This document shows positions 3,104 to 64,000 of a stretch of DNA of 64,000 nt, one piece after another. The position numbers and the translations under genes were made by a program. The DNA is from a bacterium (GTDB lineage: Bacteria > Patescibacteriota > Minisyncoccia > 2-02-FULL-40-12 > IGHO2-12-FULL-4), in contig JAUSIQ010000003.1 of the NCBI GenBank assembly GCA_030647955.1, positions 2,111-66,110 on the forward strand. Direction: 5' to 3'. The first letter of the stretch is position 1, and the number at the start of each line of letters is the position of its first letter. A model generated the notes under the pieces. It was not told where the DNA came from and made no database searches. It saw only the letters and a list, made by a program, of their open reading frames with translations.

Positions 3104-4450
3104 ATGACTACTAAAATCGAGAACAATTTATTAGACAAAGTCGTCTCTTTAGCCAAACGGCGTGGTTTTATATTTCCCGGCTCCGAAATTTACGGCGGAC
3201 TGGCGAATAGCTGGGATTTTGGTCACTTGGGTAATGAACTTTTTAATAACATCGCCAGCTTGTGGTGGAAGAAATTTGTACAAGAGAGAGACGATATGGT
3301 GGGACTGCGCGGACCAATCATTATGAGTCCCAAGGTCTGGGAAGCTTCCGGTCATGTGCAGGGCTTTTCGGATCCGTTAGTGGAGTGCAAGATTTGTCAT
3401 GAGCGATTTAGAGCGGACAAAGAGGAGGAGCTCAAAGCGCACGCTAAAACTCACAAAGGTAAAGAAGAATGGACCGAACCAAAGAATTTTAACTTACTTT
3501 TTAAAACCTATATCGGAACAGTTGAAGACGCCAAAGCCGTAGCTTACTTGCGTGGGGAGTTGGCGCAAACGATGTTCACTGACTTTAAGACGATCCTAGA
3601 AACCACGCGCAAAAAATTACCATTTGGGATTGCCCAAATCGGCAAGGCCTTTCGTAATGAAATTACGACTGGTAATTTCATTTTCCGCACCAAAGAATTT
3701 ACGATTGCCGAGCTGGAATATTTTATAAAACCTGGAGATGAGGATAGGTATTTTAACGAGTGGGCAGATTTTATGGAGAATTTTTTGGTGAAGGAGATCG
3801 GACTGAAGCAAGAAAATTTGCGCCGCTACGAACATCCTAAAGAAAGCTTGGCCCATTATTCCAAGGGGACGATTGATTTTGAATATAAGTTCCCATGGGG
3901 CTGGGGAGAGTTGTGGGGCTTGGCTTCTCGCACGGACTTTGATTTAAAAAATCACGAAAAAGCCTCCGGAGCGAATTTGAAATACAAAGACAGCGAAACC
4001 GGAGAAGAATTCTTGCCCTTTGTCGTGGAGCCGACCGGAGGATTAGAAAGGTTGTTGCTTGCCGCTTTATTAGACGCTTACACCGAAACCGAAGCGCGTT
4101 CAGGAGAAAAAGATGCGGTACATGAGACCGAGGTAACTTTACGCTTGGCGAAATCTTTGGCTCCGATTAAAGTGGCCGTGCTACCGCTCTCGCGCAAGGA
4201 AGAGTTAACCAAGCCAGCTTACGAAATCTACCGTAATCTACAGAAGCATTGGATGGTGCAATATGACGAAACCGCTTCGATTGGCAAACGCTATCGCCGT
4301 CAAGATGAAATTGGCACCCCTTACTCCGTGACTTTTGACTTTGATTCCGTCACTGATCAGAAAGTCACTGTCCGTGATCGTGACACGATGGAACAAGAGC
4401 GCGTAGTTATAGCCGATCTGCAAAATTATTTAGAGAAGAGGCTGAAATAA
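3104..4450 (+). CDS. glyQS: Glycyl-tRNA synthetase (alpha2 dimeric type)
   Basis: FIFPGSEIYGGLANSWDFGHLG is the hallmark GlyRS motif; class II core present. Confidence 0.85.
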   Translation: MTTKIENNLLDKVVSLAKRRGFIFPGSEIYGGLANSWDFGHLGNELFNNIASLWWKKFVQERDDMVGLRGPIIMSPKVWEASGHVQGFSDPLVECKICHERFRADKEEELKAHAKTHKGKEEWTEPKNFNLLFKTYIGTVEDAKAVAYLRGELAQTMFTDFKTILETTRKKLPFGIAQIGKAFRNEITTGNFIFRTKEFTIAELEYFIKPGDEDRYFNEWADFMENFLVKEIGLKQENLRRYEHPKESLAHYSKGTIDFEYKFPWGWGELWGLASRTDFDLKNHEKASGANLKYKDSETGEEFLPFVVEPTGGLERLLLAALLDAYTETEARSGEKDAVHETEVTLRLAKSLAPIKVAVLPLSRKEELTKPAYEIYRNLQKHWMVQYDETASIGKRYRRQDEIGTPYSVTFDFDSVTDQKVTVRDRDTMEQERVVIADLQNYLEKRLK

Positions 4451-17340: not shown

Positions 17341-19154
17341 CGGATACCTATACGTGCTTTTCTGAAGCGCCAGTATAAGTCCCAATTTTGATTAGAAGTT
17401 TTACTTTCTTTCGTTTTGGGCCGTTTTAAAGTCGGCTTGTTTAGCTCTTCGGCCGGCTGATTTTGTTCTCTCATTATAATCTCTCGGGCCTTGGCTTTGT
17501 AGGGCTCCAGGGCTGGATCGCTGCAGAGCGATGGCCGGTTGTCTACTGGCTTCACAATGCCGCAATCTTTCTGAATGCGCTCATCTTCTTTTTGTTCTTT
17601 GCGGGTGAGGGTTGGTCTATACTGTTTGCTTTGGCGCTCCTTGTCTTCGGCTTGTTCTATTTCTGTGGAAACGCATAGATGAGCCTTCATCTCTAGAAAA
17701 GCGGTGGAATTAGTAGCGTAACTTTCTTTAGGGGGTAGAAAGCTAGATTCGCGTAAAGCAGTAGTGATTCTTTTCGCGAAAGCCGGGTGAGTACGGAAGA
17801 ACGAGGTCTGACGAATGTAGCCATGGTCTCGACCCATTTTTTCAAAGAAGGTCATAAATGACATAGGGTCGTATCCAGTTTTCCAAACATACTGCATGCC
17901 CAGAGTATCTGCCTCGAGTTCAAAGGCGCGGCTGACTCCGAGAAAATTCAAGCTAATAAGCATACCTAATCCGGAAAAACCATATTGGATCAGGTAATAG
18001 CCCAAATAGCCTATCGGGATGAACATGATGGCCAACTGCGCTGCCTGCATGAAGTAGCTTATTAAGCGATCCTTTTTCATTAATCGATTAGTGTGTCTGG
18101 CGGCGACGTGAGCAAGTTCGTGAGCGATGACACCCGCGAGCTGAGCCTCTTCGTCCACCAGGAGCAATAATCCTTTGTTGATATTGATGATGCCGCCGGG
18201 TAAGGCGAAAGCATTCGGATCGTCTTCGGCCGAGATGAGGATGTTGTTCTCTTCCATGGGGATCTTTAGGTCGGAGTTCTTGGCGATGGTCTGCACTAAG
18301 CCGACAACGTAGCTTTTAATGGCCGGATTCTGGTATTGTTTTTGGCGCAATTCATCTAGAAAACGCTGGGCCTCGGGATCTTTCCAGATTTTGACATCCT
18401 CTCCGGCATTGCCAAATCCGAGGTCACGTAAGCCAATATTTTCTGGATTAGCAAAAAGCCGTTCGCTAGATTTACCGGAGGCGAGATCGGCTTTAATCAG
18501 TTTTGATTCCGCTGGCCAATTCGTCAGAATATCCAGATGGGTACCCAGTACTTCATAAAATGTTTTAATGTGCTCGCGCTTGGCTTTGAAGATGTCTTCG
18601 TTGGCTTTAAGTTCCCACTCTTTGGTCTGGCACCCCAGCTTCTTTTTTTGCTCTAAAAGATTTTGATAATCTGCGTCTTTGTCTAGCTGAGTATAGTCAA
18701 TGCGAGGTACTTTCCGAGGCTTGTTATCTTCGATGACGATCTCGTCACTGCGATACTTACTCTCAATCTTCGTCATCTTATTCGCAGCATCTTTAAGCTG
18801 ATTCTGTACTTCTTTTAACTTAGCTTTGTCGCTGGCGTGTTCGCTCTCTAAGGCTAATTTTTCAGCCTTCTCTTTCTCGTCAAATCGCTTCTGTTCCTTT
18901 TCGATTTCCTTGAGATCGTACTGCACCATTTCCGCCAAAGTAGTTGTTTCTAGAAAAGAATAGTTCTTATAGATTTCTTCAAAGGTGGGCGGCTTAAGTT
19001 GGCTCTTCTTTTGCGCCGCCAAATCGTATAAAGAAATGTGCATCAAAAATGCACTCAAAGTAAGCATAGCGATAACTTTTCTGAACATGAGAACTCCTTT
19101 TTTAAAGATCTCTAATCTGCTTTTGATGATAGATCTTTGAAGGATGGGTGTCAA
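17337..19154 (-). CDS. Secreted/membrane M48-family zinc metalloprotease with N-terminal coiled-coil region
   Basis: Signal peptide; HELAHVAARH (HExxH) within a peptidase M48 core; TM segments after the catalytic motif. Confidence 0.65.
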   Translation of the reverse strand: MTPILQRSIIKSRLEIFKKGVLMFRKVIAMLTLSAFLMHISLYDLAAQKKSQLKPPTFEEIYKNYSFLETTTLAEMVQYDLKEIEKEQKRFDEKEKAEKLALESEHASDKAKLKEVQNQLKDAANKMTKIESKYRSDEIVIEDNKPRKVPRIDYTQLDKDADYQNLLEQKKKLGCQTKEWELKANEDIFKAKREHIKTFYEVLGTHLDILTNWPAESKLIKADLASGKSSERLFANPENIGLRDLGFGNAGEDVKIWKDPEAQRFLDELRQKQYQNPAIKSYVVGLVQTIAKNSDLKIPMEENNILISAEDDPNAFALPGGIININKGLLLLVDEEAQLAGVIAHELAHVAARHTNRLMKKDRLISYFMQAAQLAIMFIPIGYLGYYLIQYGFSGLGMLISLNFLGVSRAFELEADTLGMQYVWKTGYDPMSFMTFFEKMGRDHGYIRQTSFFRTHPAFAKRITTALRESSFLPPKESYATNSTAFLEMKAHLCVSTEIEQAEDKERQSKQYRPTLTRKEQKEDERIQKDCGIVKPVDNRPSLCSDPALEPYKAKAREIIMREQNQPAEELNKPTLKRPKTKESKTSNQNWDLYWRFRKARIGIR

Positions 19155-19196
19155 AATACGCCAAATTAAAAAGCGGTACGCTTTGTACCGCTTGCT

Positions 19197-19646
19197 CTAG
19201 CTAGGAGTAAATATTTTCTGAACCGTTCTTTGGGTCAAATCAACCAAATGAATGGAGGCATTCTCTAGCTTAATTCGAAAACGCTGACCGAATTCTTCGG
19301 CAAATTTCCAAACAGTCTCGTCTATTTCCGGCATGTGGCTTATGGCGATAATACTCTGCCATTCAGGATTCTGGGCAGCGAAATCTTGTAGGCGCAAAAA
19401 GGTATCTTCTTTGGTATCACAAGTTAGCCAACGCATTTCTTGTGCAGTTGGTAGGTTCAGGATAGAACTGATAATGTCCGCACTTTTAATGGCGCGAGTT
19501 AACTCGGAAGTCAGTAAGATCGTTTTCTCATCTGGGCAGAGAGCGGCTTTTAAAAAAATAGCGGCTTGCTCTATTTGATTCTTGCCTAGACTGGCGGCTC
19601 CAGCGTCAAAATCATTATAGCCGTGTCGTACTAAAAAGATTTTCAA
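19197..19646 (-). CDS. sixA: Histidine phosphatase superfamily protein (SixA-like phosphohistidine phosphatase)
   Basis: IFLVRHG (RHG catalytic His), TSELTRAIKSA, AISHMPEI. Start reassigned to TTG at 19646, preceded by AGGAGG; the upstream 30 codons of the tracked ORF are probably not translated. Confidence 0.55.
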   Translation of the reverse strand: MKIFLVRHGYNDFDAGAASLGKNQIEQAAIFLKAALCPDEKTILLTSELTRAIKSADIISSILNLPTAQEMRWLTCDTKEDTFLRLQDFAAQNPEWQSIIAISHMPEIDETVWKFAEEFGQRFRIKLENASIHLVDLTQRTVQKIFTPS

Positions 19647-19797
19647 TCTTCGCCTCCTGAATTTTAAAGACCTTAATTTAAATTTAACAAAGGAGCCTAG
19701 TTTGTAAAGGAATAATTTAAGTAATGGTGTCGTCACAAATTTCCTTTTCAGTACCGTGGCAAAACAAAAATCGGCTTAAAGCCGATTTTTGTTTACG

Positions 19798-20070
19798 CTA
19801 TTCTTTTGTCGTCGACTTTCTTTTGCTGAAAACGTAGAGATAGAGAATATCTAAAATTCCCGCCGTGTGAATTAAGAGGAGAGCGATAAACCATCCTCTT
19901 TCTCCGCGGCGTGCGGCGCGCCAGAGGGCCATGCCTTTCCAGGCGAGCGACCAGATGATTAACAGGGCGAAGAAAAAACCGGCAACGCCAAAGGTCATAT
20001 CTCTAGCAAAAGGCATATTCCAGTGGCCGTAAAACTGGTGCCAACCGTAATCCGTGTAGTCGTAATCCAT
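19798..20070 (-). CDS. Small membrane protein (2 TM helices), function unknown
   Basis: 90 aa; hydrophobic helices FGVAGFFFALLIIWSLAW and WFIALLLIHTAGILDILYLYVF. Confidence 0.4.
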   Translation of the reverse strand: MDYDYTDYGWHQFYGHWNMPFARDMTFGVAGFFFALLIIWSLAWKGMALWRAARRGERGWFIALLLIHTAGILDILYLYVFSKRKSTTKE

Positions 20071-20158
20071 ATGTTATTAAATAATTTACTGATTACTCAC
20101 TAATTATAGTCCCTTAAGAATTAGCGAACAAGGGTGAAGAGGAGATGAGAAAGAAGGG

Positions 20159-20291
20159 TGTGCTCGAGGTGGGACTTGGCTTCGACTCTCGGCTCGCCGC
20201 CGCTCGCCTCGGTCTAGCCACCGCCTCGCGGTCCCTCAAGCTTTCGGGACAGCGCTCCGGCGTTCAAGTCCCAGCACAAATAAAAAGTTAT
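20159..20291. repeat. GC-rich (~62%) 130-bp element bounded by a 20-nt exact direct repeat of the tRNA-Leu 3' end (20159-20178 = 20292-20311) and an inverted degenerate tRNA T-arm copy (20262-20278)
   Basis: Exact 20-mer TGTGCTCGAGGTGGGACTTG appears twice. GTTCAAGTCCCAGCACA matches the T-loop/3' end with a 6-nt deletion. GC is far above the local level. Confidence 0.5.
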
Positions 20292-20293
20292 TT

Positions 20294-20376
20294 GTGCTCG
20301 AGGTGGGACTTGAACCCACAAGGTCGTGAGACCACACGATTTTGAGTCGTGCGTGTATGCCATTCCACCACTCGAG
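20294..20376 (-). tRNA. tRNA-Leu (anticodon CAA), type II with long variable arm, CCA not encoded
   Basis: Reverse complement folds as GCTCGAG/CTCGAGC acceptor, anticodon loop CUCAAAA, variable arm TGGTCTCACGACCTTGT, T-loop GGGTTCAAGTCCC. Confidence 0.85.
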
Positions 20377-20634
20377 CAATATTAATGCATTTTAGCATAT
20401 TTTTGACAATTTTCAACTTGTGAGGGCATTGTAAGAAGCACTATGTTCCGCTACAATTAAGATACTTAACAGCGATTCCAATTAATATCTCGGCGTCTTA
20501 ATCGGCATCATCAAGCTTCGCTTGATGGCCGATATCCGCCGACCGTAAAATTGCTCCAAAGAAGCAAATCTCTCGGAAGCATAAGGGACTTCTTTACCGC
20601 AATTTTACTGATATCAATTTGAACCTTCGACGTC

Positions 20635-44704: not shown

Positions 44705-44771
44705 GACTTTTATTTATTTATTATCAATAAACTATCATTTAATGAGTGAAATGTGAATTCTTTGCAATTTG

Positions 44772-44842
44772 TCGGGCTGCCGAGATTCGAACTCGGACTA
44801 AATCCACCCCATGGACTCGTGCTGCCGTTACACTACAGCCCG
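44772..44842 (-). tRNA. tRNA-Pro (anticodon GGG)
   Basis: Reverse complement folds with acceptor CGGGCTG/CAGCCCG, D-stem GTGT/GCAC, anticodon loop AUGGGGU, T-arm CCGAG-TTCGAAT-CTCGG, discriminator A. Confidence 0.75.
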
Positions 44843-44846
44843 CTTA

Positions 44847-45734
44847 TTACTTTTTAGCCGTCAGAGACTTTTTCTCTTGGGCCATGCGGTCTAAAATACT
44901 TCTTAGCATTACATAGGCCTGATCTTCGTGTCGAAAATTAGTCGAAATATTCTCCTTGCCTTTTAGTATACCTTGAATCAAAGTGAGAGCGGTGGTTAGT
45001 TTTTTACTTGCTTCCCCGGAAGAGAAAGGAATGAGTCGAGCTAATTGCAATCCGATTTCTTCTAAAAACTGTCTTTGTACTTGATGAGTGGCTAGTTCTT
45101 CTCTTTTGTTTTCTACAGATAGCTCTAATAAACTTTGATATGTTTTGGTGTCGGCTGCGAGCACTACGCGAGGGATGTGCAGTAGAGGCTCTTTGAAATC
45201 TTCTTGCGCTTCGGATTGAAAGTATTTCACTGTGCTTAATCTGCCTTCCTCGACTTCCTTCTTAATTTTTAATAATTTGCCGGTGAGATATTCTTCGTCT
45301 TCGGTGGAAGCCACATCTATCGCTAAAGCTAAGCGAGAAACGCCATCGTGATCTACTAGCTCAATTACCAGATCTACTCCATTGGCGATATCATCATAGG
45401 TCGATGTTTTTACGGTAAAGGCGTTGTCCCCAAACCAGTTATTTAATTCACTTTGTACGAAGATGAGAGCTTCTAGAATTTTCCCCCTTCGATTTCTTGA
45501 TCTTTCTTGTTGATTAAACTTGCCTTGCCGATCGGCTACATAGGCCTGATCGTGAGCAATCTCTTTAGCTGGATATTTGTCTTCAAATTTGCGGATATCA
45601 ATAGCGGCTTCTTCTGCTTGTAAAACAAAAGCCTCGTAGGCCTTTGTTTCGAGCTCTTCTAGATGAGCCCTTCTTTCCGCTGGCAAAAGTTTTTCACCCA
45701 TATTAAGTGTTAAAAACCTTTGTATTTGTCCCAA
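44847..45734 (-). CDS. Hypothetical acidic protein (295 aa), co-oriented with rpmB and tRNA-Pro
   Basis: Long ORF; no recognisable motif. Confidence 0.45.
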   Translation of the reverse strand: MGQIQRFLTLNMGEKLLPAERRAHLEELETKAYEAFVLQAEEAAIDIRKFEDKYPAKEIAHDQAYVADRQGKFNQQERSRNRRGKILEALIFVQSELNNWFGDNAFTVKTSTYDDIANGVDLVIELVDHDGVSRLALAIDVASTEDEEYLTGKLLKIKKEVEEGRLSTVKYFQSEAQEDFKEPLLHIPRVVLAADTKTYQSLLELSVENKREELATHQVQRQFLEEIGLQLARLIPFSSGEASKKLTTALTLIQGILKGKENISTNFRHEDQAYVMLRSILDRMAQEKKSLTAKK

Positions 45735-63274: not shown

Positions 63275-64000
63275 ATGAAGTTCTGGATTTCAGCAGTTTT
63301 GGTCGCTTGTTTGGTCCTCCCAGTGGGGATGGTCCAGGAAGCGGCTGCGCAGGTGCAGGCCAAGAAAGCGGCTCCGGTGAAGAAGAAAACGACCCTCAGG
63401 AGGGTTGTTGCACCCGAGCTTCCGCTTAACGCCTACGAGACGTACTCGGAGTGCGAGCAGGCGCTCAAGCAGAAGAGGGGCTATTACGTGCCCACCTTCT
63501 TCGGAGAGAGAGGACGGAAGCCGAAACGGCCCGTGGCCTCCACAAGGGCTTTGGAAGCGGATGGTTGCGCCTATCTAAAGGTAGCCGGCGGAATGTACGC
63601 CTGGGTACCTCAGAAGAAGGGGACGCTTTACGACTATGATGCCGAGTATCATCCGATTCGTCGGCATGATTGCGGCAATTCTGTCGTGGAGATTCGCTAT
63701 CCTAAGGCCGAGCCGGTGTTAAGAGCGATTGTGGCTGCTGAGGCCGAGCCTCGTGCTGAAGCAGAGCCTGTGCCACCTGCCGAGGCTCCGCCTGTCTTCA
63801 CTTCCACGCCGGCTGTACCGGTGAAGGTGAGGCAGGATGGAGTGGTCAACATTGTTGGAAATAACAACGAGGTTGACTTCAGGAGCATTAAGGTCATTGA
63901 ACGAGTCCATCCGGTTGTCGTAGAAAGGCACGGTATGTCTACCGGCACCAAATGGGTGATTGGCGGTGTCGCGGCCGGCATCGTTGGTGGGCTCGTGTAC
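63275..64000 (+). CDS. GC-rich (~58%) secreted/membrane hypothetical protein, 3'-truncated by window end; likely horizontally acquired
   Basis: ORF open from ATG 63275 to window end (>241 codons). Signal peptide MKFWISAVLVACLVLPVGMVQEAAAQ; C-terminal hydrophobic segment; Ala/Pro/Glu-rich linker. Codon usage unlike the rest of the window. Confidence 0.5.
   Translation, partial: MKFWISAVLVACLVLPVGMVQEAAAQVQAKKAAPVKKKTTLRRVVAPELPLNAYETYSECEQALKQKRGYYVPTFFGERGRKPKRPVASTRALEADGCAYLKVAGGMYAWVPQKKGTLYDYDAEYHPIRRHDCGNSVVEIRYPKAEPVLRAIVAAEAEPRAEAEPVPPAEAPPVFTSTPAVPVKVRQDGVVNIVGNNNEVDFRSIKVIERVHPVVVERHGMSTGTKWVIGGVAAGIVGGLVY

Follow-up and report, generated by a model that had tools for sequence, protein, structure and literature searches.

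At face value, the tRNA-Leu(CAA) gene of the contig JAUSIQ010000003.1 stretch analysed here (64,000 nucleotides, hereafter the window) is followed by the scar of a lost mobile element, in the form of a GC-rich insert bounded by copies of that tRNA’s 3′ end. The question raised by this locus is whether the insert is indeed such a scar or an element in its own right. The initial annotation of the window proposed the decayed remnant of an integrated element or, alternatively, a tRNA-derived sequence resembling a miniature inverted-repeat transposable element (MITE). According to our analysis, there is an even chance that positions 20179–20312 (134 bp, made up of a core, an inverted arm, a short spacer and the repeat by which the tRNA is now completed) form an entire member of a family of miniature insertion elements, which are non-coding and target the 3′ ends of tRNA genes. 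This family is apparently undescribed (a shallow search of the literature returned no description of such elements), and the small form, devoid of any open reading frame (ORF), is its normal state and not the outcome of random decay.

Repeat architecture of the insert

The target of the insertion is a tRNA-Leu(CAA) gene on the minus strand (20294/20295–20377), which scores as intact with both ARAGORN and Rfam (RF00005, 57.2 bits). The last 18 nt of this tRNA (positions 56–73), together with 2 nt of trailer (CA), make up a direct repeat of 20 nt, which reads TGTGCTCGAGGTGGGACTTG on the plus strand and is found in two exact copies (20/20): a proximal one (20293–20312, minus strand), i.e., the functional 3′ end of the gene plus 2 nt, and a distal one (20159–20178), hereafter distal “a”, which is a displaced tRNA-Leu 3′ end co-oriented with the gene. 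The flank beyond the distal repeat reads ...ACCCTTCTTTC. While the duplication is as exact as the initial annotation had it, the proximal copy had been placed one base too far left. By our own estimate, about 0.002 pairs of exact 20-mers are expected by chance in 64 kb. Displaced, downstream and in the same orientation as the gene, the repeat does have the shape of an attachment-site (att) integration into a tRNA 3′ end, as first suspected and as defined by the criteria of Islander (PMC4383910).

A further copy of the tRNA end is inverted. This arm, hereafter “b” (20262–20283, plus strand), is a sense copy of tRNA-Leu positions 53–73 followed by 8 nt of trailer, in which ACCTCG is missing at the junction of the T stem and the acceptor stem; the 6-nt deletion reported initially is real, while the arm is longer than the 20262–20278 then given. 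Because it reaches position 53 of the tRNA and includes 8 nt of trailer, the template of the arm was the repeat next to the tRNA, as opposed to the distal copy. Spelled out, GTTCAAGTCCC, a gap of 6 nt and AGCACAAATAA (20262–20283) mirror TTATTTGTGCT, CGAGGT and GGGACTTGAAC (20288–20315) on either side of the loop AAAG, so that the inverted arm and the proximal repeat can form 22 bp with a 6-nt bulge. The centre of the palindrome consists of AAAG (20284–20287) and of the 5-nt tRNA trailer TTATT (20288–20292), and stands where the other members of the family (see below) have a terminator hairpin.

Between the distal repeat and the inverted arm lies a core of 83 nt (20179–20261, plus strand), with 72% GC and with hairpins and blocks common to other members. 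GC content amounts to 61% over the 134 bp of 20159–20292, against a window mean of 43.8% (standard deviation of 6.4% per 100 nt), which bears out the GC-rich segment initially described, and the peak reached in the core (0.71) is the maximum of the whole 64 kb. The core features a hairpin-tip block, GCTCGCCGCCGCTCGC (20192–20207, plus strand), with a GC/GC stem around a UC/UC internal loop (GA/GA on the other strand), a conserved block, GCCTCGCGGTC (20223–20233, plus strand), within a CCGC-CUC-GCGG hairpin, and a block of 23 nt, ACAGCGCTCCGGCGTTCAAGTCC (20249–20271, plus strand), which holds a 4-bp hairpin with a UCCG loop (20252–20263) and continues into the inverted T-loop sequence.

Absence of the insert from orthologous loci

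To establish whether the segment is an insertion, the locus was compared with 12 related lineages: L001–L008 (eight GTDB species; ParA identity to the window of 52–87%), L083 and L084 (91%), L086–L089 (one species in four assemblies; 88%) and L091 (86%). The tRNA-Leu(CAA) gene adjoins parA in 12/12 lineages, and no trace of the core was found at the tRNA-Leu(CAA)–parA locus in any of the 12. Likewise, the window core shows no significant similarity to the intergenic DNA of the relatives or to the tRNA itself. Since the far side of the locus is also common to L084, the closest syntenic relative, and to L086–L089 (Sua5–FolD, and FolD–M48), the locus is orthologous. The absence of the insert from 12 syntenic lineages thus makes the 134 bp a lineage-specific insertion, in line with the initial annotation.

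The block extending from FolD to the tRNA 3′ end (17341–20292 in the window), which was compared with L084, L083, L086–L089, L091 and L001, differs in every relative: a 97-aa gene only, 226-aa and 97-aa genes, M48 with 337-aa and 195-aa genes, a hydrolase, etc. Nearly every lineage has its own gene directly downstream of the tRNA, which makes the 3′ flank of tRNA-Leu a recurrent synteny breakpoint in the clade. Three other features were observed at this flank. In L008, a distant relative, a partial second copy of the anticodon arm (GCACGACTCAAAATCGTG, ~2545–2575) sits at the same locus, about 25 nt downstream of tRNA-Leu (2597–2678). In L089, a gene starting about 10 nt downstream of tRNA-Leu (3107–3805; called shorter in L086–L088) has a faint match to the LAGLIDADG_3 family of Pfam and may be homing-endonuclease-like. 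In L083, where the element is absent, a short GC-rich hairpin, CCCGCCGAAGGCGGG within GCCGAGACCCGCCGAAGGCGGGGCGAGGC (2395–2430), lies about 20 nt downstream of tRNA-Leu and has no significant similarity to the window core.

A family of homologous elements at other tRNA genes

The family was found through one exact 22-mer of the window, CAGCGCTCCGGCGTTCAAGTCC (20250–20271), searched in metagenomes, which matched four metagenome contigs of the Joint Genome Institute (JGI) and NCBI: L092, L093, L094 and L095. L092 and L095, from two samples, hold identical elements next to tRNA-Ala(TGC), and the adjacent tRNA is Leu(GAG) in L094; L093 has Ala-type ends and its contig stops before the tRNA. All share a layout that, on the strand antisense to the tRNA, runs from the flank through “a”, the core, “b” and a short hairpin to a second “a” lying within an intact tRNA. 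Throughout the family, distal “a” is the reverse complement of positions 56–73 of the local tRNA plus 1–9 trailer bases, “b” repeats the local tRNA in sense orientation, starting at position 53 and running past its end into the trailer, and the core (83–110 nt) ends with the invariant ACAGCGCTCCGGCGTT. The direct repeats, which always start at C56 (T-loop position 56), are exact over 20 nt in the window, 22 nt in L095 and 27 nt in L092 (by eye), and span 17 nt plus a 1-nt deletion in L094; they are spaced by 114 bp in the window and by about 180 bp in L095 and L094.

The 23-nt block is identical in the window and in all four contigs. Outside the search 22-mer, the cores of the window and L094 align with a score of 28, against a null of 15.4 ± 2.8 (reached by 0/1000 shuffles); the blocks that they share include GCTCGCCGYCGCTCGC and GCCTCGCGGTC, the latter identical in both, while L094 carries GCTCGCCGTCGCTCGC where the window has its hairpin-tip block. 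The Ala-type cores form a second subfamily, tied to the first one by the 23-nt block and the shared architecture. Finally, an nhmmer profile of the core, run over the window and 95 loci, yielded matches confined to the five family loci. Four other contigs thus show the same compact, ORF-less layout and a conserved core at other tRNAs, which speaks against the remnant proposed initially. Within the window, the element interval (114 bp) holds only a 66-aa ORF, antisense to the tRNA and running across the element (20145–20345, plus strand), whose dismissal as spurious is upheld: it has no homologue, and its frame is not kept in L092, L094 and L095, where the ORFs spanning the elements read the conserved block in other frames.

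The two sides of the elements also differ in what follows the tRNA end. The trailers that follow the restored tRNA resemble one another from locus to locus (CAAATAAC, CAAACACAAA, CAAACAGACAAA), whereas the distal trailers are not, a contrast that is predicted by an att-type insertion. The distal trailers of L093 and L095 share CAAAAAAAC, although their remaining flanks differ. Beyond the distal fragment of L095, in the sense of the tRNA, come an A-rich trailer and, on the tRNA strand, a predicted terminator; L094 has a hairpin and a T-run at this position (read by eye). What appear to be the original trailer and terminator thus stay with the distal copy, and the element supplies a new tRNA end and trailer.

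The start of contig L092 (1–45) deserves a separate comment. This contig begins 25 nt before the distal repeat, which is preceded by an element-type trailer, TTGTGTTTG, and a different hairpin (AGTCAGACGGTGCTGACT), unlike in the otherwise identical L095. Such an arrangement may correspond to a tandem array of two elements or to a strain polymorphism.

Hairpins and covariation

In 3/3 complete loci, “b” and the proximal repeat form one long hairpin, the tip of which is the hairpin lying between them (−20.3 kcal/mol in the window, −41.4 and −45.0 kcal/mol in the other two; DNA parameters). The inverted arm is interrupted at the T-stem/acceptor junction in every case, by the 6-nt deletion in the window and by an inserted hairpin of 25–27 nt in L095, L093 and L094. 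The latter has an invariant GCAG loop, and its stems differ yet stay paired: out of nine pairs, six show compensatory changes and 100% of the cells are paired, which was equalled in 0/500 shuffles, whereas slid controls were only 28–51% paired. Between L095 and L093, 17 of the 163 columns differ without breaking a single predicted pair, with four compensatory changes and three switches between U-A and U-G, several G·U pairs occurring only on the strand antisense to the tRNA. As for the UCCG hairpin of the 23-nt block, its pairs are invariant. These comparisons indicate that selection maintains pairing of the element’s hairpins in the antisense strand when single-stranded, a covariation that fits RNA or single-stranded DNA alike.

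In L095 and L094, the centre of the palindrome is a terminator-like hairpin, flagged on both strands, and terminator-like hairpins bracket the element on both sides. The window copy is devoid of both the GCAG hairpin and a separate terminator. Across all loci, the only segment common to the inverted ends is GGACTTG/CAAGTCC, the remainder being copied from the local tRNA.

Origin and nature of the element

The scenario that we favour for this miniature insertion element would start with conservative site-specific recombination, catalysed by an enzyme of the tyrosine-integrase type acting in trans. A crossover inside the shared CAAGTCC... segment would generate the att-like duplication, displacing the original tRNA end and its terminator, for which the element would substitute an end and a trailer of its own along with a new hairpin. 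The inverted arm probably acts by folding into a hairpin, by analogy with the integron attC and CTXphi attP(+) sites, and would have been kept because the element works as a folded single strand: the hairpin would rebuild a duplex, branched copy of the tRNA-gene end that could serve as the recombination site. Alternatively, the arm might belong to a structured RNA transcribed from the antisense strand. One possible way for both arms to come to match a new tRNA would be target-primed copying of the tRNA end from the shared GTTCAAGTCC.

Several points weigh against this scenario. The distinct sequences of the family are four in number and all were retrieved through one exact 22-mer, while blastn-short and nhmmer detected no second copy of the element in the 64-kb window. 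No excised form, within-strain empty-site polymorphism or second copy per genome was seen, and none of the ten candidate ORFs of the window matched Phage_integrase, and the family has no recombinase tied to it. Moreover, by our own reading, the sequence to the left of the distal repeat has no inverted symmetry with the T stem, as would be expected of core-type integrase sites. The tRNA-specific parts must change in both arms for each target, which a simple integrase model does not explain. The window copy, lacking the conserved GCAG hairpin, may be a reduced or inactive variant. Lastly, the trailer following the restored tRNA in the window (CACAAATAAC) weakly resembles, over some 10 nt, the native trailer of L084 (CACAAACAAT); if meaningful, this likeness would reverse the assignment of the native flank.

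A bolder version, which we consider rather unlikely, is that of a hitherto unrecognised, protein-less class of mobile elements, which would find tRNA genes by means of a folded nucleic acid mimicking the 3′ end of such a gene. Its hairpin arms would be the sense and antisense versions of the target tRNA end, carried along or regenerated at each insertion and attached to a conserved structured core, and the hairpin, either as single-stranded DNA or as RNA, would be the recombination substrate or the guide for an enzyme encoded elsewhere.

Among the competing explanations, a structured small RNA gene is tentative at best, though better placed than those that follow: the antisense strand would be transcribed as an RNA of 120–165 nt, with its 5′ and 3′ ends paired in a long helix, the gene standing alone or riding on a mobile carrier. 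The covarying hairpins, the G·U pairs limited to the antisense strand and the invariant C(UCCG)G hairpin, which belongs to the stable UNCG type, would suit such a gene, as would the terminator-like hairpin past its 3′ end in L094 and L095 (flagged) and in L093 (by eye, the scan having not flagged it) and a GC content far above background, a common trait of structured RNAs when the genome is AT-rich. Yet single-stranded DNA would give the same covariation, no Rfam family was matched at the window locus even at E ≤ 10, and folding in the window gave only modest z-scores, equal for the two strands (−2.4 and −2.5). No sigma-70-like promoter was predicted on the antisense strand in the window, L093, L094 and L095, and in both L094 and L095 the 5′ end borders on a terminator hairpin followed by a T-run; the lack of a promoter and the bracketing terminators are weak evidence against a simple RNA gene. 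An RNA gene alone leaves both the tRNA-copying ends and the duplicated tRNA end unexplained. The initial annotation had held that conservation of the insert in relatives would point to a functional RNA; what is found cuts both ways, orthologous loci being free of the insert and non-orthologous loci carrying a conserved structured homologue, and does not settle the matter. The decay of a larger prophage or island, in which an internal deletion would have left about 114 bp between intact att sites, accounts for the tRNA 3′-end direct repeat, a classical island signature (PMC4383910), and agrees with the synteny breakpoint found at the tRNA 3′ flank in all relatives. We nevertheless judge it improbable, since the same ORF-less structured unit of 130–190 bp is found at three different tRNAs, on which independent decay would not converge, both repeats are exact, and the phage, plasmid and viral searches gave no similarity beyond chance matches.

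Equally poor are the prospects of a local replication or repair scar, produced by fold-back at the tRNA 3′ hairpin and template switching, with filler DNA in between. The inverted arm does mirror the tRNA end, the trailer and half of the downstream hairpin, with its centre of symmetry in the hairpin loop, as fold-back synthesis gives, and by our own count the core is enriched in CTCG, a part of the acceptor stem. But the supposed filler is homologous to sequences found at other tRNAs in other genomes, and everywhere it is one and the same 23-nt block that joins the core to the inverted arm. As a one-off accident, the scar is refuted by the existence of the family, while a programmed, element-driven form of target-primed copying is possible. 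The least credible explanation by far is that the assembly is at fault, for instance through a chimeric join made where a tRNA k-mer is conserved. Here, the repeat is exactly 20 nt long, i.e., k−1 at k = 21, and the independent Logan assembly of run SRR13727527 (contig L081, k = 31), the support of which covers the left junction only and not the right one, ends inside the core at 20230; neither ParA nor a presumed partial ORF, looked up there to reach the right junction, is on record. In this very assembly, however, the left flank is continuous with the distal repeat and with the first 52 nt of core, all exactly reproduced at a larger k, and the same architecture is observed in four contigs from other projects.

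Large integrase-bearing islands classically settle in tRNA genes; the same type of footprint is left here by gene-less elements of 130–190 bp, which have a conserved, covarying structure and contain a mirror copy of their target. Were these elements mobile, no smaller users of tRNA att sites would be known. They would also raise the question of how a non-coding element keeps both arms matched to different tRNAs, for which target copying, hairpin-templated repair or a guide-like role are possible answers. As they sit at tRNA 3′ flanks, where synteny breaks in these small genomes, a part in rearrangements may fall to them. On a practical note, they break assemblies and create spurious ORF calls.

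Comparison with known systems

In Islander, an island is delimited by a full tRNA gene and a fragment of its end on the same replicon, the 3′ fragment lying downstream and co-oriented, with an integrase gene inside or overlapping the interval and a length of 2–200 kb; both the T loop and the T/acceptor junction are named as crossover sublocations in tRNA-integrated islands (PMC4383910). The window has the intact tRNA and the displaced, downstream and co-oriented 3′ fragment of such islands. As in these islands, the repeat runs from the T loop to just past the tRNA 3′ end, the element supplies the new tRNA end, related elements use several tRNAs and a tandem array is possible (in L092). Unlike them, the elements measure 114–190 bp, well below the length range of Islander, and contain neither integrase nor ORF; the family also has an extra inverted copy of the att segment, engaged in a long interrupted hairpin, whereas symmetric core-type sites are not evident.

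Small palindromic non-autonomous elements akin to MITEs include Correia/NEMIS, ERIC and REPIN; a MITE is expected to have terminal inverted repeats of its own, a high copy number per genome and an autonomous transposon related to it. Our family resembles them in being small (120–190 bp), non-coding and intergenic, and in having inverted-repeat ends that fold the whole element into a rod. The MITE-like alternative of the initial annotation is closer to the evidence than the remnant, with the reservation that the terminal repeats copy the adjacent tRNA, and vary by locus, and that no second copy exists in the 64 kb. Furthermore, the flanking duplication is site-specific and 17–27 bp long, and no parent transposon is known.

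Integron attC sites and the attP(+) hairpin of CTXphi are folded single-strand recombination sites. In these sites as in our elements, an imperfect inverted repeat in one strand would rebuild the target duplex with an unpaired or branched centre, structure is conserved above sequence, and G·T wobbles are found on one strand only. In contrast, the family has GTTCAAG against the GTTRRRY of the attC R box, and no integron integrase or dif-like target. The resemblance is a functional analogy only, suggestive of a possible working mode and not of family membership. Finally, cis-mobilizable elements (CIMEs) are attL–attR pairs without recombination genes, kilobase-sized deletion derivatives of known integrative and conjugative elements. 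The likeness resides in att sites flanking integrase-less DNA, with a presumed mobilisation in trans, and the difference in the small form of the family having its own conserved structured core and no known parent element.

Database searches and rejected identities

Rfam 15 returned only tRNA, both for the whole window at gathering thresholds and for 20080–20420 at E ≤ 10, and nothing beyond tRNA for L092–L095 at E ≤ 1. When compared with phage and plasmid collections, a check suggested by the initial annotation for the GC-rich core, the elements of the window and L095 gave chance matches or nothing. Pattern scans of IMG/VR were without match, as was a metagenome search with another 22-mer, taken from mid-core. 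The 66-aa ORF, tried as a protein query to locate further copies, retrieved neither homologue nor candidate, and no coding relative was found among the four family matches.

A series of other identities was examined and rejected. With default ARAGORN and Rfam, nothing in the element is a tRNA or a tRNA pseudogene, and the “tRNA-Glu” reported by ARAGORN at the 80% threshold with introns allowed was judged spurious, owing to its 50-nt intron and its mismatched acceptor and T stems. Transfer-messenger RNA, signal recognition particle RNA, 6S RNA, Y-RNA-like RNA and retron non-coding RNA have neither an Rfam match nor a partner gene here. A casposon does not fit, the duplication having no terminal inverted repeats inside it. 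IS200/IS605-derived palindrome-associated transposable elements and REPINs leave no 20-bp duplication. An IS110 bridge RNA would come with a recombinase ORF, which is missing, and its would-be guide segments are fully paired. A primer-binding site of the retroviral type is at odds with a repeat ending in genomic ACA and not in CCA. As for a dif-like site, the 11-6-11 geometry of the window copy is not shared by the other members. A genuine integron attC has R″/R′ core sites on either side of an imperfect hairpin with extrahelical bases. A hairpin with a bulge is present here, but by our own reading the boxes CTTGAAC/GTTCAAG violate RYYYAAC...GTTRRRY at 2/7 positions, and the boundary TT/CAAG differs from the G/TT crossover.

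Genomic context and minor observations

Housekeeping genes make up the window, which comes from a bacterium with a small genome, and the best-named homologues of its ParA belong to Candidatus Paceibacterota and Yanofskybacteria. Leftward from the 3′ end of tRNA-Leu are encoded a DUF5652 protein (NCBI MDO8494951.1), a His_Phos-like protein, an M48 peptidase, FolD and Sua5, while ParA, ParB, RelA/SpoT and TopA are found on the other side. Upstream of the tRNA gene, a putative sigma-70-like promoter (20389–20416, minus strand; TTGAAA-16-TAAAAT with an extended TG) agrees with the consensus at 10/12 positions, the prediction being a consensus match only.

Assemblies break inside or at the edge of elements in three cases (the end of L081 at window position 20230, the start of L092 and the end of L093). 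Two further parA contigs, L085 and L090, stop 128 and 74 nt upstream of parA, respectively, just short of the expected position of the tRNA. This suggests that the breaks reflect repeats, polymorphism or low coverage of the GC-rich core.

The other tRNA gene of the window, tRNA-Pro(GGG) (44771–44842), has neither a duplicated end nor a GC-rich neighbour, and the 295-aa ORF beside it (44847–45734) has no Pfam match. Second in GC content within the window, at up to 0.67 per 100 nt, is a stretch at its edge (63280–64000), which has no Rfam match at the gathering threshold. Lastly, a near-perfect palindrome of 33 nt, seen as an inverted self-match between the DUF5652 and His_Phos-like genes (19762–19794), is probably a terminator.

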